This document shows positions 31,397 through 52,876 of a stretch of DNA of 64,000 nucleotides, piece after piece. Made by a program: the position numbers and the translations under genes. The stretch's first letter is position 1. Every line of letters starts with the position of its first letter. Source of the stretch: Kofleriaceae bacterium (GTDB lineage Bacteria; Myxococcota_A; Polyangia; Haliangiales; Haliangiaceae); the NCBI GenBank assembly GCA_046597055.1, contig JBKJLC010000131.1:32252-96251 (forward strand). The letters run 5' to 3'. The notes beneath the pieces were generated by a model. The model did not search any database and was not told the origin of the DNA. It saw only the letters and a program-made list of their open reading frames with translations.

Positions 31397-34819
<3,423 letters not shown>

Positions 34820-36430: not shown

Positions 36431-37093
<663 letters not shown>

Positions 37094-37101
37094 GGCTCTC
37101 T

Positions 37102-37590
37102 CTAGCGGCGCTTACCTTCCACAATCGCCAGCGCGGCGTCCAGTCCCAGATAGTAGCTTTGCGCGCCGAAACCGCTGATTTGTCCGACGCAGCGCCCCGC
37201 GGTGATCGAACCATGACGGAACGGTTCGCGCGCGTGCAGGTTCGACAGGTGGACCTCGATCGTGGGCAGCTCGACCGCCTCGATCGCGTCGCGGATCGCA
37301 ACGCTGGTGTGGGTGTAGCCCCCCGGGTTGATCACGATGGCGTCGAACTGGCCGCGCGCAGCCTGGATCGCATCGACCAGCGCGCCTTCGGAGTTCGACT
37401 GCACGGACTTGACCGTCGCGCCGCGCGCGGTCGCGCGCCGGGCCAGCTCGGCCTCGACATCGGCGAGCGTGGTGGTGCCGTACACCGCCGGGTTGCGGCT
37501 GCCGAGCAGGTTGAGGTTGGGCCCGTGAACCACCAGGACGCGCGGACCCGCCGCCGGCCCGGCGACCGGGGAGCGGCGGCGCGCGCTCAC
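37102..37590 (-). CDS. aroQ: Type II 3-dehydroquinate dehydratase
   Basis: [32 protein letters not shown]. Confidence 0.97.
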
Positions 37591-37943
37591 AGCTGGGCGA
37601 CGAGCTTGGGCGAGGCGAGCCGCATCAGGTAGCGGCACTTGCCGTAGTTGCCCTCGGGCGAGAGCGCGACGGCCAGGAAGTACTGCGGCGACACCATGCG
37701 GGTCACCAGCAGCAACCGCTCGGCCTTCACCGACAGCTCCTCGAAGTTGCCGACCTTCAGGCTATCGGCCGCGCGACGGACCTGGGTGAGGATGAAGCTG
37801 AACTCCATCCCGACGGTGTTGATGTCGACGCGGTCGGGCGGCCGCGTGTATGTCTCGACGGGGATGCCGTCGAGACCCATGATGACGGCGCCCAGGCCGC
37901 CATCGACGTTGTCGACGACCTTCTTGAGGATTTCGGCGAACAA
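37587..37943 (-). CDS. mglC: Roadblock/LC7 protein, MglC-like
   Basis: TTG start with [18 protein letters not shown]...[11 protein letters not shown]; lies between pilQ and accB. Confidence 0.85.
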
Positions 37944-38041
37944 GGGACCACCTCGGTAGAGGGTGCGCCGCGGGCGAGTGCCCCGGCGGAGCCGTTGTAT
38001 CACGCGCCCGATCGCAACCGCGTCGGACCGGGGACCGGTTC

Positions 38042-38806
38042 TCACACTGGGGGCGGCGCGACCGCCATCGCCGGGCAGACCAGCTCGGTGCCGATGGAAC
38101 AACAGTCGACCCCGCTGTCCTGGAACGTGTTGCAGACGCCGCCCCCGCTGGGCATGAAGTCGTTGGCCAGCGTGTCACACGGACCCACGTACGACGTCAG
38201 GCAACCGCGGCAGACATCGATCGGGTAGTTGAACCAGTTCGAGTTGACCTCGTCGCCCCCGCGGGTCCCGTACACCTGGATCCGGGCGTCGATGACCGTG
38301 GCCGGCGCCGGATCGGTGGCCGAGGCGGCCGGCAAGATGCCGTCGACCAGGGCCAGGAGCTCGGCCGGGACCAGCTCGAACCCGATCGCGACGGTACCGC
38401 CGCCCGGATCGATCGCGCCCGACAGCAGTCGGTCGAACCGGGTGAGCCCGCGCGCGTCGAGCGTGGCGACATCGCCGGCCGGAAACAGGTCCTCGTCGAC
38501 GAACGACAGCTCGATGTGGGCACCGGTCAGGAAGATCGTCTTCGGGCCGATCGGCTCCCCCGACACCACGGTCAGATCGTTGCGGAGCAGCGGCGTGAAC
38601 ACATAGCCGTTGCCGGCCAATGTCTCGATCTGGCCCGAGGTGCGAAACGCGGTCGCCGCCGGATCGATGACGCAGCCTTCGCCGGGGACGATGTTGCGCA
38701 GGATCAGGAGCGGCGCGTCGGCGCTGTTGTCGACGCACGCGGCCAGCGAGACCAACGCGGTCGCGAGCAAGAGTGGCCGGAGCGAGATGCGGCGGGTGAG
38801 AGTCAT
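38042..38806 (-). CDS. Cys-rich lipoprotein in the pilQ-mglC interval
   Basis: SD GAGGAG; LAAC lipobox; FNYPIDVCRGCL. Confidence 0.8.
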   Translation of the reverse strand: MTLTRRISLRPLLLATALVSLAACVDNSADAPLLILRNIVPGEGCVIDPAATAFRTSGQIETLAGNGYVFTPLLRNDLTVVSGEPIGPKTIFLTGAHIELSFVDEDLFPAGDVATLDARGLTRFDRLLSGAIDPGGGTVAIGFELVPAELLALVDGILPAASATDPAPATVIDARIQVYGTRGGDEVNSNWFNYPIDVCRGCLTSYVGPCDTLANDFMPSGGGVCNTFQDSGVDCCSIGTELVCPAMAVAPPPV

Positions 38807-38847: not shown

Positions 38848-40443
38848 TCAGGGTCGCAAAAGATCGGCGAGATCGCTGGGCGCGACCTCGATCACTCGGC
38901 AGTCTCCCGGGGCCGCGCACGCCACGAACCCGATGTGGGTCCCACGGCGCTTCTTGTCCACCACGACGCGCGCCAGCACGTCGTCGCGCAGCCAGGGATC
39001 GAGCTGGCAGGGTAGCCCGGTCGCGCGCAAGGCGTCCGAGATCCGGACCTCGAGGTCGGCGCTGGCGACCCCGAGCCGGGCCGACAGCCGCGCCATCGCC
39101 ACCAGGCCAAGGCCGACCGCCTCGCCGTGGAGGAGCTGCCAGTCGGCCGCAGCTTCGATCGCGTGGCCGATGGTGTGACCGAGGTTGAGGAGCGCGCGCT
39201 CGCCGCGCCGCTCGAGCTCGTCGCGGCTGACCACCGCCGCCTTCAGGGCGGCCGCGCGCTCGATCACCGCCGCCACCGCCGGCGGGGTCGGGGCCGCATC
39301 GTCCGCGGCCCACCCGGTGAGCCCGGCGATCGCGTCCCACAGCGGCTCGCCGTCGAGCAGCGCGTACTTCCACAGCTCGCCGAAGCCGGCGCGGCGCTCG
39401 CGCGGCGGCAGGGTCGCCAGGGTCGGCGTGTGCGCGTGGACCAGCCGGGGCTGGTGGAACGCGCCGACCAGGTTCTTGCCGGCCGGGAGATCGACCGCGG
39501 TCTTGCCGCCGATCGCCGAGTCGGTCATCGCCACCAGGGTGGTCGGCAGCTGGACCACGGCGACGCCGCGGTAGAGCGTCGCCGCGACGAAGCCGGCCAG
39601 ATCCCCGACCACGCCGCCGCCGAGCGCCCAGATCGTCGCGTGGCGGTCGAGCCCGGCCGCGACCAGGCCGGCGGCGAGCCGACCGTACTGCTCGAGCGAC
39701 TTCGAGGCCTCGCCGGCCGGGACCACCTCGACGTGGAGCTCGGCGCCGGCCGCGGTGAGCGCGTCGTGATAGGCCGGCACCCAGCCGGCCAGGTTGGCGT
39801 CGGCGACCAGCGCGCCCTTGCCGGGCGTGACGTGGCGGGCCAGCGCGGCCTCGAGCGGCTGGTCGCTGACGACGATCGGATAGCTGCGGGCGCCGAGGCT
39901 CACCCACGGGGTCGCGGTGCCGAGCGCATCGGCGCCGCGGACCAGCCGGACCACCTCGCCGGCGACGTCGGCGGCGCTGCGGTCGTCGGTGACCACCACC
40001 GCGTGGGCGCGGCGGTAGGCGCGGGCGCGCTCGCGGTACATCGCGGCGAGCTCATCGCGGGGGCGCCCGAGCAGGGGCCGCGAGCCGCTGCTCGCGGCGC
40101 GTCCCAGCGCGGTGTCGAGATCGACCGCGAGCGCGACCACCAGGCCAGCGGCCCGCATGCGCGCGAGGTTGTCGCCCCACGCGGCGGCGCCGCCGCCGGT
40201 GGCGATCAGGCGCGGGGTGTCGCCGGGCGGGTCGGCGATCAGGCTGGCGATCGCCTCGGCCTCGCGCCGGCGGAAGTCGGCCTCGTCGGCCGCGACCAGC
40301 GCCGCGGCCGGGCGACCGGCGTGCTCGGCGATCACGTCATCGACGTCGACGAAGCCACGGCCCAGCCGCGCCGCCGCGAGCTGACCCACGGTGGTCTTGC
40401 CGGCGGCCGGGAAGCCGATCAAGAAGACGGGAAGCGACGACAT
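38848..40443 (-). CDS. aroB: Bifunctional shikimate kinase / 3-dehydroquinate synthase
   Basis: GFPAAGKTT, ATGGG, RPLL; GGGVVGDLAGF, PTTL, GGKTA, LNLGHTIGHAIE. Confidence 0.95.
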   Translation of the reverse strand: MSSLPVFLIGFPAAGKTTVGQLAAARLGRGFVDVDDVIAEHAGRPAAALVAADEADFRRREAEAIASLIADPPGDTPRLIATGGGAAAWGDNLARMRAAGLVVALAVDLDTALGRAASSGSRPLLGRPRDELAAMYRERARAYRRAHAVVVTDDRSAADVAGEVVRLVRGADALGTATPWVSLGARSYPIVVSDQPLEAALARHVTPGKGALVADANLAGWVPAYHDALTAAGAELHVEVVPAGEASKSLEQYGRLAAGLVAAGLDRHATIWALGGGVVGDLAGFVAATLYRGVAVVQLPTTLVAMTDSAIGGKTAVDLPAGKNLVGAFHQPRLVHAHTPTLATLPPRERRAGFGELWKYALLDGEPLWDAIAGLTGWAADDAAPTPPAVAAVIERAAALKAAVVSRDELERRGERALLNLGHTIGHAIEAAADWQLLHGEAVGLGLVAMARLSARLGVASADLEVRISDALRATGLPCQLDPWLRDDVLARVVVDKKRRGTHIGFVACAAPGDCRVIEVAPSDLADLLRP

Positions 40444-40470: not shown

Positions 40471-43400
40471 TCAGCCTCCGACGCAGCGGAGCGCGCCCTT
40501 GTTGGTGATCTTCGGCGTGATGAAGATCAGCAGCTCGGCGCGGTCGTCGTTCTCGCGGCGCGACTTGAACAGCCAGCCGAACACCGGCAGGTCGGCGAAG
40601 AACGGGACCTTCGAGTACGACAGGCCGGTGTTGCGGGTGTAGATGCCGCCCATGACCGACGTCTCGCCGTCGGCGACCAGCATGCGGGTGCTGGCCTCCT
40701 TGTTGAGGATGGTCGGATCGCCGCGCGCGCCGGTGTTGACGAAGTCGGGCTCGTCCTTGGTCACCGCGACGTCCATGACGATCGCGCAGTCGCGCTGCGA
40801 CACGTACGGCGTGACGATCAGCGACAGGTTGGCGTTGATGAACTGGGTCTGGGTGCCCTGGGCGCTGCTGATCGAGATCGGGATCTTCACGCCCTGCCGC
40901 ATCTCGGCCTTGGTGTTGTTGAGGACGGTCACCTTGGGCGCCGAGATGATGCGGACCGTGCCCGACTCCTCGAGCGCCGACAGGCGGAGGTTGATGTTGA
41001 CGTTGCCGCCGACCGACCCGAGGGTCAGGCCGATGGCGCCGTTGGTGCCGCCGGCCGGCAGGTTGATCGCGTAGTCGGCCGGCGCCGCGACCCCGACCTC
41101 GCTCTTGTCGCCGTCGGCCGCGCCACCGAGCAGGTTGACCGTCGACGGGAAGATCAGGCCGGTCGCGTTGCCGGAGGTGCTCCCGTTCAGCGAGCGACCG
41201 CCCCACTGGATGCCGATCTGGCGCTCGTAGCTCGACCGGGCCTCGACGATGCGGGCCTCGATCGAGATCTGCGGGGTCTGGGTGTCGAGCCGCGCGGCCA
41301 GGTCGATCACCTCGCGCCGGTTGCGCGCGATGTCGTTGACGATGATCGAGTTGGTCCGCTCGTCGACCTCGATCTTGCCCTTGGGCGACAGCAGCGGCGC
41401 GAGCTTGGGCTGCAGCTGCGCGGCGTTGGCGTAGTTGAGCGTGAACACGTCGGGCTGCGGCGACTCCAGCTCGACCATCGCCTTCTGGCGCGCGGCCTCG
41501 GCCTCGTCCTCGGCGTCGAGCTGCTTGCGCGGCGCGACCCGGTACAGGTTGCCCTCCTTGCGGTAGCCGAGGCCCTTGGACGCGAGGATCACGTCGAGCG
41601 CCTGATCCCACGGCACCCGCTTCATGCGGACGGTGACCGTGGCGTTGATCTCGTCGGGGACGACGATGTTGACGCGCCCGACGTCGGCCAGCAGGCGCAG
41701 CAGGTCGTGGATGTCGGCCTCCTTGAAGTCGAGGTCGATGGTCGCGCCGCGGTAGGTCTTGCGGCGGGCGCCGAGCTGGGCGACCGAGCTCTGGGTCACC
41801 GGCGCCGAGGTCGCGCCGAAGCCGCCGACCACCGGGGGCCGCTGGCGCTGGGTCCTGACCTGCGCGACACCGGCGGTCGCGAAGTGGAGGCTGACCGCGC
41901 CGCCGCTGGTGTCGAGCCGCGGGGTGGCGTCGGCGGTGAGGTCGACCACCACGCGGACGTCGCCGCGCACGTCGGTGTACGAGGACACCGCCTTGACCGG
42001 ACCGCGGAAGCGGCTGGTGTCGAGGGTCTTGGCCAGCGGGGCCGGGAGGGTCGCGCCGTGGATCACGAGCTCGGCGCGCCGGCGCGTGGTCTGCATGAGC
42101 TCGGCGGTCGCGCCCTTGCCGTCGAGATCGACGACCACGCTGTGCTGGCTGTCGGTGGGCGTGAAGTGGACCGCGGCCACCCGCGCGGTGGGCCGGGCCG
42201 GGCCGGCCTCGACGGTGGGGTTGGCGCGCGGCGCCGCCTTGCGCGCGGCGGGTGCGGCCGCGGCGGCGGCCCGATCGGCGCGCAGCGCGGCCAGCGCTTT
42301 CTCCTCGGCGGCGCGGGCCGCGGTCACCTCGGCGAGCCGGGCCTCCTCGCGGGCGCGGGCGTCGCGGGCGCTGGCGGCGGCCTGCTTGAGCCGCTCGACC
42401 TCGGTCTGCGCGGCCTTGCGATCGGCGGCGAGGCGCTCGGCCTCGCCCCGGTTGCGGGCGACCTCGCGCGAGCGGGCGGCCAGCTCCTGCTCGGCGGCCT
42501 TGCGGGCGGTGGTGAGCCGCTCGGCCTCGGCCCGCGCGCGGTCGAGCTCGACGGTGGACACCTTGCGGCGCGCGGCGTCCTTGGCGGTCGCCTCGGCGGC
42601 GGTGGCCGCGGCCTGGCGGTCGCGCGCGACCCGGGCGGCCTCGCGCTCCGAGGCCAGCGCCGCCTCGAGCTCGGCGGCCGCGGTCGCGGCGGCCTGACGG
42701 CGCGCCTCGGCGTCGCCGCGCGCACGGGTGGCGGCCTTGGTGGCCTGCTCCTCGGCGACCCGGGCGGTGCGGGCGGTGGCGGCGGCCCGCTCCTCGACCC
42801 GGCGGGCCGACCGGGCGGCGGCGGCCGCGCGCTCCTCGGTGGCGCGCTCGGTCTTGGCGGCGGCGGCCGCTTGCTCCTCGGTGGTGCGGGTCGACCGGGC
42901 GGCGGCGGCCGCCTGCTCCTCGGTCGTACGCCGGGCGCGTGCCGCGGCGGTCGCCTGCTCCTCGCTCGCGCGCGCCTGCTCGGCCGCGGCGCGGCGCGCC
43001 TCGGCCCGCTCGGCGGCGGCGAGCGTGTCGGTGCGACGCTGCTCGGTGGCCGCGAGCGCGGCCTCGGCCGCGGCGGCCCCCTTGCGGGCGCGCGCCGCGG
43101 CGGTCTCGGCGGCCTTGCGCTGCGCCTCGGCGGCATCGCGGGCGGCGTCGGCGCGGGCGAGCCGGGCGGCGGCCTCCTTCACGTTGCGGTCGGCGGCGGC
43201 GCGGGCGGCGGAGGCGTCGCCGGTCGCACCCCGGGCCTCGCGGCGCGCCTCGGCGGCGGCCTCGACCGCGGCAGCGGCGGCCTGACGCTCGCTGGCGGCG
43301 TCGACCAGCGCGGCACGGGCCGCCTGCTCGCGCGTCTCGGCCTGGGCCTGGGAGTCACGCGCAGCCGCGCCAGCCTGCTCGGCGCGACGGGCGGCGGTCT

Positions 43401-44934
43401 CGATCTTGGCCAGCTCGGCCTTGGCCTGCGCCAGCATGCGGTCGGCCTCGGCGCGGGCCTTGGCCGCGGCCTTGCGGTCGCGCTCGCTCTCGGCCTTGGC
43501 GCGGGTCGCATCGGCGCTCGCCTGCGCGGCGGCCTGGCGGTCGCGCTCGCTCTCGGCCTTGGCGCGGGTCGCATCGGCGCTCGCCTGCGCGGCGGCCTGG
43601 CGATCGCGCTCGCTCTCCTGCTTGGCCTTGGCGGCGTCGGCCACCAGGCGCACCGCCGCGGCCTTCGCCACGTCGGCGTCGGCGCGGGCCCGGACGATCT
43701 CCTGCTCGGCCGCGGTCTGCGCGGCCCGGGCGTCGGCGCGGGCCTGCTCGGCCGCGGCCTGGGCGGCCTTGGCCCGCACCAGCTCGCGCTCGGCCGCGAG
43801 CTTGCTCGCCTGGGCATCCTTGGTCGACGACGACCGCGCCTTGGTAGCCTCGGTGCGCGCGGCATCGGCGGCCGCGCGGGCGCGGACCGCGTCCTGCTCG
43901 GCGGCGGCCTGGGCCCCCTTCGCGCGCGCCAGCGCCTGCTCGGCGGCGGCCTTGGCCGCCAGCGCGTCCCGGGTGGTCAGCTGCTGCGAGCGCGCGGCCT
44001 CGGTCTTCGCCGCGTCGGCGGCGGCCCGGGCCCGGACGATCTCCTGCTCGGCGGCGGTCTGCGCAGTCTTCGCCTCGGCCTGCGCCTGCACCGCGGCTTG
44101 CTGGGCGGCAGCGGCGGCGGCGCGGGCACGCGCGAGCTCCGCGCGGGCGGCGGCGACCTGCTGATCGGCGGCGGCCTTGTCCTGGCGACCGGCGCGCGCG
44201 GCCTCGGTCTGCGCCTTCTCGGCGGCGGCCTGGGCGGCCTGGGCCCGGCTCGCCTCGATCCGGGCCGCGTCGCGCGCGGCGGCGGCATCGCCCTTGGCCC
44301 GGTCGGCGTCGGTGCGCGCGGCCGCGGCCGCGGTCCGGGCCAGGTCGGCCTCGGCCACCATGCGGGCCGCCTCGTCGCGCGCGGCCTGGGCGGCGGCGCG
44401 GTTCTTCATCAGCTCGGCCTTGGCGGCGGCGGCATCCTTGCGCGCGCTGGCCGCGTCGGCGGTGGCGCGGGCCAGGTCGGCGGCGGAGACCGCGACCGGC
44501 GCCGGATCGCGCGCGGTCACCTCGATCACGACCTCCTTGCCGACCGCCTTGACATCGTAACGCCCGGGCCGGGCCAGGGTCACCACCACCCGCACCGAGG
44601 TCGAGCCGTCCTCCAGCGCCTGCGCGGCGACCTGGCTCACGGCCCAGCTGCCGACCGCGAAGGTCACCGCCGGCTCGTCACCGCGCACCGCCTCGGCGAG
44701 GGTCGCATGGGCCACGTCGATCACGACCCGGGTCGGACGCTCGAGCTTGTAGACCGTGAAGGTCGGAGTCTCGGTGCCCTGGACGCGGACCGTCGTCGTG
44801 CCCTTGGCCTCCGCGATCGCGACGGCGCGGATCTGGTTCTTGCCCCCGGCGCGCGCCGGCAGCGATCCAACCGCGACCAGGCCCACCAGGCCCGCGATCA
44901 CGCACAGCGTCCAACGATACTTGCGATCCTGCAT
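40471..44934 (-). CDS. pilQ: Type IV pilus secretin with large Ala-rich coiled-coil insertion
   Basis: N-terminal AMIN (P.RVVIDV), second AMIN, IDLDFKEADI, VPWDQALD, QISIEARIVE, ELLIFITPKI; 1487 aa. Confidence 0.95.
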   Translation of the reverse strand: MQDRKYRWTLCVIAGLVGLVAVGSLPARAGGKNQIRAVAIAEAKGTTTVRVQGTETPTFTVYKLERPTRVVIDVAHATLAEAVRGDEPAVTFAVGSWAVSQVAAQALEDGSTSVRVVVTLARPGRYDVKAVGKEVVIEVTARDPAPVAVSAADLARATADAASARKDAAAAKAELMKNRAAAQAARDEAARMVAEADLARTAAAAARTDADRAKGDAAAARDAARIEASRAQAAQAAAEKAQTEAARAGRQDKAAADQQVAAARAELARARAAAAAAQQAAVQAQAEAKTAQTAAEQEIVRARAAADAAKTEAARSQQLTTRDALAAKAAAEQALARAKGAQAAAEQDAVRARAAADAARTEATKARSSSTKDAQASKLAAERELVRAKAAQAAAEQARADARAAQTAAEQEIVRARADADVAKAAAVRLVADAAKAKQESERDRQAAAQASADATRAKAESERDRQAAAQASADATRAKAESERDRKAAAKARAEADRMLAQAKAELAKIETAARRAEQAGAAARDSQAQAETREQAARAALVDAASERQAAAAAVEAAAEARREARGATGDASAARAAADRNVKEAAARLARADAARDAAEAQRKAAETAAARARKGAAAAEAALAATEQRRTDTLAAAERAEARRAAAEQARASEEQATAAARARRTTEEQAAAAARSTRTTEEQAAAAAKTERATEERAAAAARSARRVEERAAATARTARVAEEQATKAATRARGDAEARRQAAATAAAELEAALASEREAARVARDRQAAATAAEATAKDAARRKVSTVELDRARAEAERLTTARKAAEQELAARSREVARNRGEAERLAADRKAAQTEVERLKQAAASARDARAREEARLAEVTAARAAEEKALAALRADRAAAAAAPAARKAAPRANPTVEAGPARPTARVAAVHFTPTDSQHSVVVDLDGKGATAELMQTTRRRAELVIHGATLPAPLAKTLDTSRFRGPVKAVSSYTDVRGDVRVVVDLTADATPRLDTSGGAVSLHFATAGVAQVRTQRQRPPVVGGFGATSAPVTQSSVAQLGARRKTYRGATIDLDFKEADIHDLLRLLADVGRVNIVVPDEINATVTVRMKRVPWDQALDVILASKGLGYRKEGNLYRVAPRKQLDAEDEAEAARQKAMVELESPQPDVFTLNYANAAQLQPKLAPLLSPKGKIEVDERTNSIIVNDIARNRREVIDLAARLDTQTPQISIEARIVEARSSYERQIGIQWGGRSLNGSTSGNATGLIFPSTVNLLGGAADGDKSEVGVAAPADYAINLPAGGTNGAIGLTLGSVGGNVNINLRLSALEESGTVRIISAPKVTVLNNTKAEMRQGVKIPISISSAQGTQTQFINANLSLIVTPYVSQRDCAIVMDVAVTKDEPDFVNTGARGDPTILNKEASTRMLVADGETSVMGGIYTRNTGLSYSKVPFFADLPVFGWLFKSRRENDDRAELLIFITPKITNKGALRCVGG
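43476..43617 (-). repeat. 63-bp tandem repeat (ESERDRQAAAQASADATRAKA, ~2.3 copies) in pilQ
   Basis: Near-identical DNA copies. Confidence 0.9.
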
Positions 44935-45101: not shown

Positions 45102-45845
45102 CTACTGGCGGTTGGCCCCGTCGGGCGGGACCGCGGGCGTGGCCGGCCCCGGATCCACGGTTGGACGCGCCGGCCGGGCCGGCTCGTCTGCGCCGTCATC
45201 TTCGCCGAGGGGGAGCTCCTTGGGATAGAGCGGGATCGACCGCTCCTCGGGCGCCCGCGGCGGCTGGTTGGGCACCGGCTCCGGCGACAGCTCGAGCGTC
45301 ACGAAGCCCGCGCCGATCTCCTTGACCCGGGCCTTCTCCTTGCCGAGGCAGTCACCGCGGTGGACGATCCGGCCCTCGCCGCGGGTGTCGCTGAACAACG
45401 CGTAGCGGGTGGTGCCCTGCGACACGATCCCGATCAGCCGCAGCTCGCGCACGCCGTAGCCGCGCGCGATCTGCTTCTTGATCGGGCACACGTCGGTGGC
45501 CTCGACTGCGATCCCGGGCTCGGTCACGCCGACGCCGGGCTGGGTGATCACGAAGCTGCGGAATGGATCGCGGTTCTCGGTGCCGGTCGGATCGGGCGAG
45601 AAGTCGCGCTCGCGGAAGCCGTGCCGGATGTCGGGGCGCTCCTTGTCGGTGACGACGTCCTCGACCTTCCGGTAGACCCGGAGCGTCGAGGTGTCGGTGC
45701 CGCCCTTCTTCGCCGCGGCCCCGCCGGGCTTGGCCGCCGGCTTGGCCGCGGTCGCGGCCGGGCGCGGCGGTGGCGGCGGTGGCGGGTCGTCGCCGCACGC
45801 GGCCAGCGACAGCGTGATCAGGATCAGCGCGCACGACTTGCGCAT
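45102..45845 (-). CDS. pilP: Type IV pilus lipoprotein PilP
   Basis: LAAC lipobox; RDPF; LRLIGIV; GDCLGKE; between pilO and pilQ. Confidence 0.88.
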   Translation of the reverse strand: MRKSCALILITLSLAACGDDPPPPPPPRPAATAAKPAAKPGGAAAKKGGTDTSTLRVYRKVEDVVTDKERPDIRHGFRERDFSPDPTGTENRDPFRSFVITQPGVGVTEPGIAVEATDVCPIKKQIARGYGVRELRLIGIVSQGTTRYALFSDTRGEGRIVHRGDCLGKEKARVKEIGAGFVTLELSPEPVPNQPPRAPEERSIPLYPKELPLGEDDGADEPARPARPTVDPGPATPAVPPDGANRQ

Positions 45846-46657
45846 CACATGCCTCCCTTGACGCGACCGGTGCCGGTGCCGGCACCGGTGGCAGGCTTGC
45901 CGCCGGCGTCGCCGTCCACCTTCTGCACGCGGGTCTCGGATGCGGCGCCGGCGCCCTCGACCTGCCCCTTCATCTGCTGCGGATTGCCGCTGGTACCGGC
46001 GGCCGGCTTGGCCGCGGGCGGGGTGACCGCAGGCTCGGGCTGGTCGGCCGCGCGGAAGGTCGCGGCGGTGAACTTCGCGGTGAGCATGATCTCGCCGTTC
46101 TTCACCTTGGGGTCGGCGATCGAGAGGTTCTCGATCGTCACGATCCGATCCTTCTCCTCGACCGGGTCGGACGGCAGCCGCATCGCGGCGACGTCCTCGC
46201 CATCGGGCCGGAGCGACGCGAAGAACCGCTTGAGCTGGTAGAAGGTCCCGGTCACCTCGATGTCGACGGGCACCTTGACGAAGGTCTCGATCTGGACCTC
46301 CTTGCCGACCAGGCGCTTGATGGGCTCGACCCCGGCCTCGCCGGTGCGCCGCGCCAGCATGTCGAAGAACGCCGGCATCTCCGACTCGGTCGGCAGCGCC
46401 TTCTGGTTCTGCTCGATCTGCCGCTTGAGCTCGTCCTGGCGGAGCACCTTGCGGTCGTACTCGTCCTTCTGCTCCTTCAGCTTCTTCTCGTCGGCGCGGT
46501 CGGCGGCCAGCTCGGACTCGGCCTGCGTACGCGATTTCTTGAGCGGCTGGTAGCCGAACTGCCAGTAGAGGAGCCCGAGCAGCGCGCCGAGCGCGGCGAA
46601 GATGCCGATCTTGACGCGGGTCGGACGCCGGGCGAAATCTGCGAGTGCGCCGGCCAT
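45845..46657 (-). CDS. pilO: Type IV pilus alignment protein PilO
   Basis: TM plus coiled coil; LPTESEM; VPVDIEVTGTF; RIVTIENL. Confidence 0.92.
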   Translation of the reverse strand: MAGALADFARRPTRVKIGIFAALGALLGLLYWQFGYQPLKKSRTQAESELAADRADEKKLKEQKDEYDRKVLRQDELKRQIEQNQKALPTESEMPAFFDMLARRTGEAGVEPIKRLVGKEVQIETFVKVPVDIEVTGTFYQLKRFFASLRPDGEDVAAMRLPSDPVEEKDRIVTIENLSIADPKVKNGEIMLTAKFTAATFRAADQPEPAVTPPAAKPAAGTSGNPQQMKGQVEGAGAASETRVQKVDGDAGGKPATGAGTGTGRVKGGM

Positions 46658-47313
46658 CAGTACACCACCTTCCCGGTGATGGTGAACCGGTGGTACGTGA
46701 CGTTGAGGGTCTTGTCGTCGACCCGCTGGCTCGACGGCGAGGTGACCTCGGCGAAGTAGACCGACGCCAGCAAGCGCTTGGCGAGCTGCGGGATGTCACC
46801 CTCGGACTGGGCGCCGCCCTCGAGCGTGAACAGGTCGCCCTTGAGCGTGAAGCTGGTGATCCAGACGTGCTTCGGATCCCAGTCGAGCGAGAAGCGGCGG
46901 TTGGGGTCACCCTTGTTGGTGTCGCTCACGCGCTCGGCCATCTCCTTCGACATCGTCGGCAGCCGGCCCGGCGTGAGGACCTCGCCGAGCTCGTGCAAGA
47001 CGTTGTCGGGGACGACGATGGTGCCGACCAGGCGATCGATCGCCTTGCTGCGCTCCTCGTTGGCCGCGACGGCCGCGTTGATCTTGGGCAGGTTCTTGAC
47101 CGCCTCCGAGCTGCGCTTGCGGGCGTTCTGCGCCTGCAGCTCGCGCGACTGCTCGCGCAGCGCGTCGCGCTCGTTCGCGATCGGCAGGTGCGCGACCAGG
47201 AAGACCACGACACCCAGCGCCGCCAGGGCTCCGACCCCGATCAGCAGCTCGGCCTGACCAGGCTCGGCCTGGCGCTTGGGCCGCCGCTGCGGCAGCAGGT
47301 TGATTCTGATCAT
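46657..47313 (-). CDS. pilN: Type IV pilus alignment protein PilN
   Basis: MIRINLLP; VWITSF; LEGGA. Confidence 0.92.
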   Translation of the reverse strand: MIRINLLPQRRPKRQAEPGQAELLIGVGALAALGVVVFLVAHLPIANERDALREQSRELQAQNARKRSSEAVKNLPKINAAVAANEERSKAIDRLVGTIVVPDNVLHELGEVLTPGRLPTMSKEMAERVSDTNKGDPNRRFSLDWDPKHVWITSFTLKGDLFTLEGGAQSEGDIPQLAKRLLASVYFAEVTSPSSQRVDDKTLNVTYHRFTITGKVVY

Positions 47314-47323
47314 CGGTCGACCC

Positions 47324-48370
47324 TCACTTGTCCCCCGGTCCCCGCAGGGCCAGGCCCAGACCAACCAGGGCCTCGGGGGCATGGGCGGCCAGGTATCCGC
47401 GATCGAGGCCAGCCTCGATCTCGACCTTCTTCCAGGTGTCGATCACCTCGACGGTGAGCCGGCTGCGCCGCTCGATGGCCCGGTGCAGCGCGGCGACCTT
47501 CGCGGTGCCGCCGGCCAGGCACACGCGGGTGATGTTGGCGTCGACCGTGGTCGCCATGAAGAAGTCGAGCGAGCGCTGGAACTCGCCGGCGATCACCTCG
47601 GCCACGCCCTCGATGATGCGCTCGACCTCCTGCGGCACGACCCCGTTCTCGTCGTAGTTGCCGCCGACCTTGTAGGCCTCGGCCTCGTCGGCCGAGACCC
47701 CCAGCTGCTTCTGGATCTCCTCGGTGAACGCGTTGCCCCCGATCGTCACGTCGCGGGTGAACAGGCTGGCCCCGCCGCGCACGATGTTGATGTTGGAGAT
47801 CGCGGCGCCGACGGTGATGCAGACCGCGGTCTCGCGCGGGTCGAACGTGTAGTTGAGCTCGAACCCGTTCTGGCTGGCGAACGCGGCGACGTCGACCACC
47901 TGGGGCGAGAGCGCGGCGTCCCGGACGACCTGGACGTAGTCGGCGACCACGTCCTTCTTGGCGGCGACCAGCAGCAGCTCGGTCTGCCCCATCGCGTTCT
48001 GCTGGTTGATGACGTGGTAGTCGATCTCCACGTCATCCTTGGCGAACGGGATGTGGTGCTCGGCCTCTTGCTTGATCTGGTTGGCCAGATCGTCGGGCCG
48101 CATCTGCGGGACCGCGATCTTCTTGATGATGACCGAGTGACCGGCGATCGCGATCGCGACCTCCTTCTGACGCAGGCGCAGGCGGCTCCACAGCGCGCGG
48201 ATCGCCTCGACCACCGCCGACTGATCCATGATCGCGCCATCGACGATCGTCTGGGGCAACAGGGGCTGCATCCCGAACGCGGTCAAGACGTAGCCGGTGC
48301 GGCCCTTCTTGATCTGGACCGCCTTGATGCTGCTGGAACCGATGTCCAGACCGATGCAGTTCTTTGCCAT
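47324..48370 (-). CDS. pilM: Type IV pilus assembly protein PilM
   Basis: GLDIGSSSIK, LLVAAKK, GGNAFTEEI, GLALR. Confidence 0.96.
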   Translation of the reverse strand: MAKNCIGLDIGSSSIKAVQIKKGRTGYVLTAFGMQPLLPQTIVDGAIMDQSAVVEAIRALWSRLRLRQKEVAIAIAGHSVIIKKIAVPQMRPDDLANQIKQEAEHHIPFAKDDVEIDYHVINQQNAMGQTELLLVAAKKDVVADYVQVVRDAALSPQVVDVAAFASQNGFELNYTFDPRETAVCITVGAAISNINIVRGGASLFTRDVTIGGNAFTEEIQKQLGVSADEAEAYKVGGNYDENGVVPQEVERIIEGVAEVIAGEFQRSLDFFMATTVDANITRVCLAGGTAKVAALHRAIERRSRLTVEVIDTWKKVEIEAGLDRGYLAAHAPEALVGLGLALRGPGDK

Positions 48371-49682: not shown

Positions 49683-49843
49683 GCGTCCGACCCACCCCGG
49701 GCTCGACGAGGTCGCGAGCGACGTCAAGACGATCACGGTAACACGTGGCAAGACAGCGAGCCACCCGACCGCGGGTGGGGGGTCTGACACGCTTGCGGGC
49801 GCTTCCAGGCTTGATCTAGGATGCGCGAGCTTCTTGAGGGTGC

Positions 49844-49877
49844 GCCAACCACGTTGGCAATGCCAACCAGGTTGGCA
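49844..49877. promoter_or_regulatory. Tandem palindromic enhancer sites
   Basis: GCCAAC-CAC-GTTGGC and TGCCAAC-CAG-GTTGGCA. Confidence 0.7.
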
Positions 49878-49929
49878 GGCCGGGCGCCCACGGCCACACG
49901 TAACCTCCCGTCGCGACAGCAACGTATCG

Positions 49930-49945
49930 TGGCAATCGCCTTGCA
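49930..49945 (+). promoter_or_regulatory. sigma54 promoter
   Basis: TGGCAATCGCCTTGCA (GG-N10-GC). Confidence 0.85.
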
Positions 49946-49979
49946 AAGTCGGGACGAGCTACCTGCTGGAGGCCCATCA

Positions 49980-51443
<1,464 letters not shown>

Positions 51444-51562: not shown

Positions 51563-52876
51563 ATGCCCCGCCTCCTCCCCGCGCTCGCCCCGCTCCTCCT
51601 CTGCTCGCTCTCGTCGTGCGTCGATCGTGAGGTCACGACGCTGATCGCGTCGCCCGATTCGGTCGAGGTCAAGTCCATCCCGGCGACCACGAACCGAGAG
51701 CTCGACATCCTGTTCGTCATCGACAACTCGGGTTCGATGACGCAAGAGCACATGGCGCTGGTCCGCGACTTCCCGCGGATGCTCGCGCACCTCGCCGTGT
51801 TCGACGGCGGCCTGCCCGATATCCACATCGGGGTGGTCACGCCCGACCTCGGCACCGCGCCCTACCCGCGCGCCAACTGCGATGGTGGCGGCGGGGACGG
51901 CGGGCGCCTGCACGGCGGCGCCTGTGCCGCGCTCGGCGGCAACTCGTTCCTGTCCGACGTCCGCGATGCCAGCGGCGGCCGCGTGCGCAACTACACCGGC
52001 TCGCTCGAGGCCGCGTTCTCGTGCATGGCCAATGTCGGCACCACCGGCTGCGGCTTCGAGCAGCACCTGGCCGCGATGGAGAAGGCGCTGACGCCCACGA
52101 TCAACCCCGGGTTCATCCGGCCCGACGCGGTGCTGGCGGTCGTGATCATCGCCGACGAGGACGACTGCTCGGCGTCGAACCCGATCGTGTTCGCCCGGGC
52201 CGAACAGCTCGGCGACTGGGAGTGTCATCCGCGCGGCATCGTCTGCGACGACGACCCCGACCCGGCTGCGCCCGGGATCAAGACCAACTGCCGGCCCGAC
52301 GACAGCTCTCCGTTCATGACCCGCGTCGATCACTACGTGGAGGCGCTGACCAGGCTCAAGGGCGACCCGACCAAGATCGCGCTGGTCGGCATCATCGGCG
52401 ACCCCGACGACGTCGAGGTGGGCGTGGTCAACGGCGATCCCGCGGTGCTGGCGAAGTGTCCGACGGGTGGGCTCGGCACGTCGGAGCCGGGGCTGCGGTT
52501 CGCCGCGTTCTTCGACAAGTTTCCAGCCGCACAGGTCTCGGTCGACAGCCTGTGCACCGCCGACCTGTCGGCGGCGCTCGAGCGCGCCGGCATCGTCATC
52601 AGCGACCGGGTCGGGTTCGCCTGCCTCGATCACGCGCTCGCCGATCGCAACCCGACCCTGCCCGACGTCCAGCCCGAGTGCTCGGTCCTGCAGCGCGCCG
52701 GCACCGAGACCACCGTGCTGCCCGCATGCGCGGCCGGCGCCGCCCGCCCGTGCTGGTCGGTCGCGCCCGACCTCCAGAACTGCCGGGCTTCGGACCACCA
52801 CCAGCGCATCACGATCGAGCGTGACGTGGCGGCCCCGCCCGAGGCCACCCTCTCGATCCAGTGCGCGGTCGAGTAG
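51563..52876 (+). CDS. Cys-rich vWA-domain lipoprotein (paralog)
   Basis: LSSC lipobox; DILFVIDNSGSM; GCGFEQ; IADEDDCS. Confidence 0.85.
   Translation: MPRLLPALAPLLLCSLSSCVDREVTTLIASPDSVEVKSIPATTNRELDILFVIDNSGSMTQEHMALVRDFPRMLAHLAVFDGGLPDIHIGVVTPDLGTAPYPRANCDGGGGDGGRLHGGACAALGGNSFLSDVRDASGGRVRNYTGSLEAAFSCMANVGTTGCGFEQHLAAMEKALTPTINPGFIRPDAVLAVVIIADEDDCSASNPIVFARAEQLGDWECHPRGIVCDDDPDPAAPGIKTNCRPDDSSPFMTRVDHYVEALTRLKGDPTKIALVGIIGDPDDVEVGVVNGDPAVLAKCPTGGLGTSEPGLRFAAFFDKFPAAQVSVDSLCTADLSAALERAGIVISDRVGFACLDHALADRNPTLPDVQPECSVLQRAGTETTVLPACAAGAARPCWSVAPDLQNCRASDHHQRITIERDVAAPPEATLSIQCAVE

Follow-up and report, generated by a model that had tools for sequence, protein, structure and literature searches.

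A proline-free, predicted helical rod between the AMIN domains of the type IVa pilus secretin PilQ in Myxococcota

What holds pilus machines in place, brings them to the poles and spaces them while they pull is an open question, and the myxobacterial picture rests on M. xanthus. The window (the whole stretch of 64,000 nucleotides that was analysed), from a soil myxobacterium, encodes a secretin with a rod-like insert between two predicted wall-binding AMIN domains. The gene is the last of a pilMNOPQ operon (Table 1), and a GAGGAG site precedes its ATG start codon by 5 nt. The closest named relatives of its product belong to Kofleriaceae genomes, the top PDB match was M. xanthus PilQ (3jc8, E 1e-135), and PilQ matches ranged from E 1e-135 to 1e-61 versus 1e-20 or weaker for GspD. 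Judged by these matches, the protein is a type IVa pilus secretin PilQ, nearer to PilQ than to GspD, and by homology it would form a 12-15-subunit outer-membrane pore through which the pilus passes. Three further secretin paralogs with weaker matches lie outside the locus in the host genome. The genome also has a TsaP homolog (E 3.5e-42), whose gene is upstream of a dprA-family gene, and since TsaP is still present we discarded the idea that the rod replaces it.

The domain order is signal peptide, AMIN1, rod, AMIN2, N0, N3 and secretin. Both AMIN domains exceeded the Pfam cut-off of 20.5 bits (41 and 31.7 bits). The initial annotation of a PilQ with a long predicted helical insert between its AMIN domains is confirmed here. 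Fold matches of these domains included 3jc8, AmiC and Neisseria PilQ B2. AMIN1 is homologous to M. xanthus AMIN1, retains the Rxxx-acid motif (as defined in PMC2572700) and has invariant columns in orthologs, and AMIN2 aligns with the last of the three AMIN domains in M. xanthus PilQ. AMIN domains have been reported to bind peptidoglycan and to localise PilQ (PMC5285504, PMC10653833), and a preprint on V. cholerae describes them in situ as a ring flanking the pore (PMC12632996).

Table 1. Features of the pilMNOPQ locus and of the pilQ product, in window coordinates.
Feature	Position	Strand	Size or residues	Basis or remarks
pilM	47324..48370	-	348 aa	domain search
pilN	46657..47313	-	218 aa, normal size	domain search
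pilO	45845..46657	-	270 aa, normal size	domain search
pilP	45102..45845	-	247 aa, normal size	Pfam PilP E 2.7e-5, slightly below cut-off
pilQ	40471..44934	-	1487 aa	Pfam domains, PDB match, operon context
Predicted Sec signal peptide	44848..44934	-	residues 1 to ~29	by eye: basic start, hydrophobic core, A-x-A
AMIN1, distal predicted peptidoglycan-binding domain	44512..44838	-	residues ~33-141	Pfam, PDB match, AlphaFold
Proline-free Ala/Arg/Glu/Gln rod	42253..44496	-	748 aa, residues 147-894	composition, AlphaFold
Longer duplications in rod	43648..44109	-	150-bp (50-aa) period	76%
Duplicated block in rod	within 43648..44109	-	120 bp, second copy 342 bp away	81%
Recent tandem repeat in rod	43440..43617	-	63 bp (21 aa), 2.8 copies	92% matches
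Older tandem repeat in rod	42743..42991	-	42 bp (14 aa), about 5 copies (5.3)	74-75% matches
Pro/Ala-rich low-confidence linker, rod to AMIN2	42187..42252	-	residues 895-916	composition, AlphaFold
AMIN2, proximal predicted peptidoglycan-binding domain	41875..42186	-	residues ~917-1020	Pfam, PDB match, AlphaFold, fold match
N0 (STN) domain	41530..41754	-		Pfam STN 1088-1135; PDB 4ar0 match 1061-1156
N3 (Secretin_N) domain	41269..41448	-		Pfam
Secretin barrel core	40504..40977	-		Pfam Secretin 1320-1477, E 1e-40

The rod had been described as almost free of proline, and it contains none at all; it is 41% Ala, 14% Arg and 10% Glu, with few large hydrophobic residues (26 Leu, 23 Val and 4 Ile at residues 146-890, ~7%). 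Since 40 of the 739 residues outside the rod are Pro, a run of this length would be expected by chance at ~1e-18 (rough arithmetic), and it ranks third among the 69 proline-free frame stretches of at least 200 aa in the genome. The reading frame is the coding one, because third-position GC (0.95-0.96) is like that of the flanking domains (0.92-0.99), which rules out a wrong frame. The 21-aa and 14-aa units of the initial annotation were both recovered, the latter at 42743-42964 within the span given in Table 1, and the autocorrelation of the rod peaked at lags 7, 14, 21, 28, 35, 42 and 49. The 150-bp and 342-bp duplications are additional to the repeats listed there. Misassembly, which had been raised as a possible explanation, was ruled out by the same architecture in other genomes and by contigs of three public runs, all from a single study that may be the source of the assembly; they cover almost all of the rod, each piece differing at 0-1 positions. 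These contigs, which are short, break at the 63-bp array, where depth was ~3.4-6 times that of the flanks; the assembly has two copies of that piece, so that the copy number of the 21-aa unit may be under-assembled.

AlphaFold predicted five helices of 97-216 aa (residues 151-247, 250-367, 373-567, 574-789 and 794-896) joined by short Gly/Ser hinges, at a mean pLDDT of 80 for the protein and a pTM of 0.32, which means that the model does not fix the overall shape. The helix anticipated earlier, ~110 nm in total and too long to span the periplasm, is thus retained in length, but not as a continuous one, the longest segments being ~29-32 nm. The PilQ of Persicimonas caeni was predicted with the same plan, three helices and two hinges. 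In a Foldseek search against the PDB only the AMIN domains matched at E <=0.001, and the rod had no informative match.

The rod keeps a heptad register through repeats and indels, as judged from several sequence measures. Over residues 395-790, 39 of 56 heptads have Ala at a given position (p 2.6e-5 against a 42% background), and of 59 columns that are 90% Ala or more in 76 orthologs, 28 fall in this same register, a count to which the aligner can itself contribute by lining up Ala columns. In a scan of 222 rods, 50 had strong repeats; in 37 of these the best lag was divisible by 7, and in 8 more it was 7n+4. Among 160 gaps in 58 close pairs, 82 were multiples of 7 and 51 more were 7n+3 or 7n+4, although the periodicity of the sequence makes such counts circular in part. 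The earlier suggestion of expansion in heptad register is borne out by these lags and indels. Of 46 rods, 35 had their strongest hydrophobic period at 3.48-3.58. The term coiled coil fared less well, because none of 27 windows of this rod passed the Leu-zipper filter, its core being Ala, and the term rests here on the register and on relatives. Large hydrophobic residues do not occupy both core positions in this protein but do so in other lineages: Leu-zipper windows numbered 69 of 2548 in close relatives (30 shuffled), 522 of 1320 in the Persicimonas/Lujinxingia-like set (52 shuffled) and 233 of 912 in other families (52 shuffled).

We surveyed homologs for the same architecture, and found that it is no peculiarity of one genome. 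In a non-random sample of 43 scorable families, 28 had AMIN1, rod and AMIN2, with rods of about 200-2020 aa. Cultured carriers include Persicimonas caeni (377-aa linker) and Lujinxingia, the label of four clusters and one variant with linkers of 394-408 aa, and rods of close relatives range from 393 to 865 aa. By this sequence survey, the arrangement extends over much of Myxococcota and is no local oddity, with M. xanthus lacking the rod. In homologs without a rod the AMIN domains are adjacent, 7-15 aa apart; one member of the same family as the window protein has a 37-aa linker instead, and another has neither AMIN1 nor rod. Rodless groups nest among rod-bearing ones in a quick tree, unfinished and midpoint-rooted, which for that reason does not separate one origin with losses from several gains. 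Such a distribution indicates that lineages can evolve without the rod. Profiles built from three rod segments of 81 residues detected no rods outside the order (15 bits was exceeded at no more than 2 of 35 loci and in 1 of 114 proteins, compared with 3 of 35 for a control segment and 2 of 35 for a reversed one), and profile-profile alignment of two rod sets started only ~130 residues before the rod end, so that a common origin across orders is not demonstrated.

On these grounds we propose an anchoring function, and see the rod-bearing PilQ as a variant of a known machine. Our preferred reading, tentative at a probability of roughly 0.45, is that the rods are parallel coiled-coil legs carrying a second wall anchor sideways. 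The insert would be a hinged alpha-helical rod, as the predicted helicity and hinges suggest; rods of adjacent subunits would pair as parallel coiled coils and lie flat between outer membrane and cell wall, and each secretin ring would be pinned to peptidoglycan twice, by AMIN2 close in and by AMIN1 up to ~110 nm away. The rod may thus be a load-spreading foot that widens the reach and avidity of PilQ for septal and polar wall. Its exact length would be uncritical, which would let it grow or shrink by slippage in register-keeping units.

The lateral orientation is suggested by AMIN2, which keeps its usual distance from N0 (31-109 aa in 29 loci with rods versus 36-75 aa in 8 loci without), and by the length of the longest segments. 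As PilM/N/O/P lengths showed no increase with rod length either, a lateral tether or spacer, one of the functions first suggested, fits best, and a wide periplasm was rejected. Two-stranded coiled coils can show Ala/Leu at one core position and Leu/Arg at the other, flanked by Glu. The rods have this pattern, with Ala/Leu at one position, Leu or Arg at the other and Glu flanking, and their indels are unbalanced: in only one of 29 informative pairs (55 pairs in all) was a change of at least 14 aa in one half balanced in the other. Both observations point to parallel pairing. The distal tip would also matter, since conservation among close relatives is higher for AMIN1 than for AMIN2 (0.66 versus 0.49) and AMIN1 is the sole AMIN, on a 240-aa rod, of one relative, although in the Persicimonas-like set its conservation is no higher (0.52 versus 0.53). 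Against two anchors, one AMIN suffices in M. xanthus (PMC10653833) and a TsaP anchor is present here, so that the need for an extra one is not obvious. The rodless relatives also speak against this reading, and the tenfold length range is a poor fit to a strut of fixed purpose.

The best alternative, which we regard as unlikely, is a spacer or bridge between machines, in which rods of different rings pair or AMIN1 docks on a neighbour ring to give a lattice with rod length as its spacing. The unbalanced indels fit equally well the pairing of identical chains from different rings, and the Ala stripe at every seventh residue resembles Alacoil pairs, which are close-packed antiparallel helix pairs, but Arg or Ala frequently takes the second core position in place of a large hydrophobic residue. 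The range of rod lengths would yield lineage-specific spacings, whereas their fast change among close relatives argues against a precise ruler, and no partner-binding motif was seen.

The scarcity of Leu-zipper windows here and in close relatives means that the rod could instead be a set of single helices, an unpaired, extensible and TolA-like leash for AMIN1 that may be loosely folded. We find this quite improbable. The high Ala content, the few large hydrophobic residues and a charge period of 7 agree with it, as do the TolA-like Ala/Lys/Glu repeats of one relative and the likening to TolA of an AMIN-linked helical region of delta-proteobacteria by de Souza et al. (PMC2572700), but a lone helix has a period of ~3.6 and no need of heptads, while the repeats, the indels and the hydrophobic period all keep to 7, and Leu-rich heptads are clear in other lineages. 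It is also decidedly unlikely that the rod is a tolerated expansion, a linker grown by slippage and kept helical and in register to spare assembly, but without a function in its own right. The length range, the recent near-identical repeats and the repeated loss would all be expected from it; independent growths are conceivable because the rod profiles do not reach beyond the order, and Neisseria PilQ with 2 or 6 octapeptide repeats is reported to have an unchanged ring structure (PMC3031610). However, the insert doubles or triples a protein of 12-15 subunits and is retained in most scored families, its high-GC DNA excludes proline for hundreds of codons, and within the family some rod columns are invariant or nearly so and the hinges are conserved.

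An intramolecular hairpin or bundle projecting a 30-55 nm arm would keep AMIN1 beside AMIN2, as in rodless homologs, and hinges are predicted, but this is very improbable: a central hairpin was rejected on the unbalanced indels, which concentrate in the N-terminal third, the central hinge (568-573) is the site of a 4-residue insertion missing from most orthologs, and no turn is predicted for the middle segment in Persicimonas. A vertical spacer for a very wide envelope, which would combine a wall-binding domain with a coiled coil and a barrel in the outer membrane, as SlpA/OmpM of Deinococcus and Thermus do (PMC9388160), is extremely unlikely, given AMIN2 at normal distance between rod and barrel, PilN/O/P of normal size, and rods of 110-300 nm that far exceed the 28-30 nm SlpA stalk (PMC9388160). 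Cleavage that frees the AMIN1-rod half to act in the periplasm as an assembly chaperone, or as the processed scaffold first suggested, is scarcely credible, even with the low-confidence linker at its end, AMIN-plus-helix proteins given as an architecture of their own (PMC2572700) and frame breaks in the rod at three loci (few assemblies), since the ortholog alignment showed no conserved cleavage motif and the secretin domain of other assemblies is also broken, which points to sequencing errors.

Laterally extended, wall-anchored legs would bear on the wider question of machine spacing. The rods are two to fifteen times the width of a machine (15-20 nm in M. xanthus, PMC10653833) and lie in the anchoring part of PilQ. 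The broader proposal that over much of Myxococcota 40-300 nm coiled-coil legs make the pilus secretin a periplasmic, wall-anchored spoke or lattice that sets how polar machines are spaced and bear load is doubtful as a whole; were it true, the textbook, rodless machine of M. xanthus would be a derived exception. We found no description of a PilQ rod in PubMed Central CC and bioRxiv texts, a search range outside which most subscription papers fall. The main texts of two myxobacterial pilus-gene surveys including Haliangium, as available, do not contain the word "coiled" (PMC6060248, PMC13190605), and the available supplement rows for Myxococcales PilQ give only Pfam domains (30 of 35 places). 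The nearest precedent found is an aside of 2008 on AMIN fused to a TolA-related helical region in several delta-proteobacteria, which is listed apart from PilQ; the available text describes no rod between secretin AMIN domains (PMC2572700).

Among known systems, TolA domain II is likewise a long Ala/charged-rich helix, but the window PilQ lacks an inner-membrane anchor and the TolA C-terminal domain. It had no TolA family match, its helix lies between two AMIN domains in a pil operon and not in a tolQRAB neighbourhood, and of the TolA-like linker first suggested only the composition stands. The octapeptide repeats of Neisseria PilQ also lie between two AMIN-type domains. These small basic repeats are similar in being of low complexity and variable in copy number (2-7 copies, PMC3031610), but they span at most 56 aa, contain proline and form no heptad rod. 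SlpA/OmpM of Deinococcus is alike in plan, with a wall-binding head, a length-variable coiled coil and an outer-membrane barrel, but has an SLH head and a trimeric porin, with the stalk directly on the barrel and fitting a 30-nm gap (PMC9388160), whereas the window PilQ has AMIN heads and a secretin, AMIN2, N0 and N3 between rod and barrel, and a rod 4-10 times longer. The closest counterpart is M. xanthus PilQ, of 901 aa (3jc8/3jc9) and without a rod, as anticipated for a protein of ~900 aa, which shares the operon, AMIN1, the last AMIN, N0, N3, the secretin and the TsaP partner. Flexible linkers connect its three AMIN domains (PMC10653833), and where it has a middle AMIN and linkers, the window PilQ has a predicted helical rod of 748 aa.

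By every testable feature, the window protein belongs to the PilQ family. Its gene is the last of a pilMNOPQ operon, its product matches the Pfam families AMIN, STN, Secretin_N and Secretin, and its best solved relative is the 901-aa PilQ of M. xanthus (E 1e-135), whose first and last AMIN domains align with the distal (AMIN1) and proximal (AMIN2) ones of the window protein, both above the Pfam cut-off. Between these two domains, residues 147-894 (the rod) contain no proline and 41% Ala, and their autocorrelation peaks at multiples of 7. The in-register 63-bp and 42-bp units described in the initial annotation are both present, and there are additional duplications of 150 bp and 342 bp. Third-position GC in the rod tract is in line with that of its flanks. 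Contigs of three public read runs, which belong to one study and are possibly the source of the window assembly, tile nearly the whole rod and break up at the 63-bp array; the elevated depth there may mean that the assembly has too few copies. The comparative evidence for the reality of the rod is stronger than that of the read contigs. In a first homolog search, which kept proteins of 817-2603 aa and by this length filter removed most rodless forms, two AMINs were found in 110 of the 120 best homologs, with linkers longer than 150 aa in 109 of those 110 (393-865 aa, median 690). A second search, with a distant relative as query and proteins of 614-1957 aa, gave two AMINs in 116/120 and such linkers in 114 (median 335 aa), including 377 aa in a protein labelled Persicimonas caeni and 394-408 aa in proteins labelled Lujinxingia, lengths that would correspond to rods of about 55-60 nm. 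The long rod between the AMINs of this PilQ is confirmed. The named genomes nearest to it are labelled Kofleriaceae or Myxococcales bacterium, the Kofleriaceae being part of the Haliangiales, Myxococcota.

A PilQ match was present in 217 of 251 genomes of the phylum, and the longest open frame among the 150 listed matches was 2830 aa. The survey of ortholog lengths that had been proposed as a check was made on 87 fetched loci, a non-random sample partly picked by length: rods were found in 28 families and rodless forms alone in 15, two more being unscored, and the longest linkers, 1905-2021 aa, would span about 300 nm if helical throughout. Farther afield, 60 loci from Pseudomonas, Acidobacteria, Nitrospirae and other groups, many of them encoding distant secretins, contained no proline-free stretch longer than 84 aa before N0, the STN domain. 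When the secretin parts (84 of 88 rows) were placed in a quick tree, groups without a rod were nested in rod-bearing clades at least three times. The window's own family holds a natural deletion series: both AMINs joined by a 37-aa linker with no rod (locus L205), AMIN2 alone (L200), and, lacking AMIN2, AMIN1 with a 240-aa rod (L053) or with a short helix (L203). Neither rod profiles nor profile-profile comparison supported homology of the rods across orders, and in one relative the rod repeats are TolA-like, made of Ala/Lys/Glu in place of the Ala/Arg/Glu type. Databases probably understate how common the rod is, because many relatives' assemblies (L005-L009, L012, L013, L016 and others) break off within pilQ on the upstream side of N0. 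Persicimonas is described as a cultured, rod-shaped bacterium encoding type IV pili (PMC7188933).

For residues 30-1030 plus 76 relatives, AlphaFold predicted AMIN1, five helices of 97, 118, 195, 216 and 103 aa (about 14, 18, 29, 32 and 15 nm at 0.15 nm per residue) connected by short hinges, and AMIN2, with a mean pLDDT of 80 and a pTM of 0.32, so that the global path of the rod is not fixed by the model. A Persicimonas PilQ was modelled with three helices and two hinges. The long helical rod of the initial annotation is therefore retained, but as predicted hinged segments and not as one continuous helix of ~110 nm. Selection acts on the heptad register. Within residues 395-790, Ala recurs at the same position in 39 of the 56 heptads, with no significant stripe in residues 147-394 or 794-894. 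Among 50 rods with strong repeats the lag was 7n in 37 and 7n+4 in eight; gap lengths were 7n in 82/160 and 7n+3 or 7n+4 in 51/160, a count that carries some circularity where sequences are periodic. Of 46 rods, 35 had a hydrophobic period with its maximum close to 3.5; in the window protein this peak was weak. Leucine-zipper windows numbered 69/2548 in close relatives (30 in shuffled sequences), and 522/1320 and 233/912 in two sets of other lineages (52 shuffled each), whereas none of 27 passed in the window rod; the coiled coil first proposed keeps its heptad register, but a classical zipper is unlikely in this protein.

We tentatively favor (probability about 0.45) that the rods form hinged legs, likely parallel coiled coils, which would lie along the cell wall, anchor the secretin ring over a wide footprint through the AMIN1 heads at their ends, and aid in capturing the polar wall. 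This reading draws on the indels, the AMIN2 spacing, the PilMNOP sizes, the roles of AMINs and the conservation of AMIN1. AMINs attach to peptidoglycan and bring PilQ to the septa and cell poles (PMC5285504, PMC10653833), and in V. cholerae an AMIN ring is described flanking the pore (PMC12632996, preprint). AMIN1 retains an Rxxx-acid motif and is more conserved than AMIN2 among close relatives, although not in the Persicimonas-like set. The initial interpretation is supported in part. A bridge between machines is an unlikely second to wall-lying legs. A single-helix leash and a tolerated expansion are each somewhat less likely still. Far down come three improbable readings: a central hairpin, which requires balanced arms, whereas indels were balanced in only one of 29 informative pairs and pairing of identical chains accepts any in-register indel; a vertical spacer, since the AMIN2-N0 distance is 31-109 aa with a rod and 36-75 aa without, and PilM/N/O/P, where captured (a few rows being truncated or mis-assigned), keep their sizes beside 2000-aa rods; and a processed scaffold.

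Features of the pilQ region and of related loci
Feature	Position	Strand	Remarks
pilQ	40471-44934	minus	1487 aa
Fused shikimate kinase and 3-dehydroquinate synthase (aroK-aroB)	38848-40443	minus	531 aa; directly downstream of pilQ
Small Roadblock/LC7-like protein	37587-38102	minus	E 3.6e-4, below cut-off; between pil operon and TPR gene
Biotin carboxyl carrier protein	36431-37093	minus	Met-Gln-Pro pentapeptide repeat in linker
TPR protein	31397-34819	minus	1140 aa; TPR clusters at both ends, acidic middle; downstream of roadblock gene, aroQ, accB, accC
Two adjacent paralogous Cys-rich predicted lipoproteins	49821-51443, 51563-52876	minus	vWA-like motif, by eye
TsaP homolog, window's genome	L210:2625-3890	minus	upstream of dprA-family gene, downstream of TPR protein
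Very long proline-free helical protein, window's genome	C122:9592-12156	plus
Very long proline-free helical protein, window's genome	C107:15289-17220	plus
Relative's rod, TolA-like repeats	L047:946-4266	minus	locus cut by contig end

A role of the rod as TsaP substitute is ruled out by the TsaP homolog still in the genome. By eye, a receiver-like domain precedes one of the two other helical proteins and an FHA-like domain the other. The paired lipoproteins we take to be reminiscent of myxobacterial adhesin-like lipoproteins. In size and domains alone, the 1140-aa TPR protein resembles SgmX, which activates polar pili in M. xanthus and has 1060 aa and 14 TPRs.

No description of a rod between PilQ AMINs was found in the PubMed Central and bioRxiv literature searched. 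As for the TolA-like linker of the initial annotation, the rod shares its composition with TolA and nothing beyond that. de Souza et al. (2008) report that several delta-proteobacteria have AMIN fused to a helical region related to TolA, an architecture listed separately from PilQ (PMC2572700). SlpA/OmpM proteins (PMC9388160) are alike in working plan, but the window PilQ lacks the features that define them. The octapeptide repeats described for Neisseria PilQ (PMC3031610) are a small precedent for the rod.
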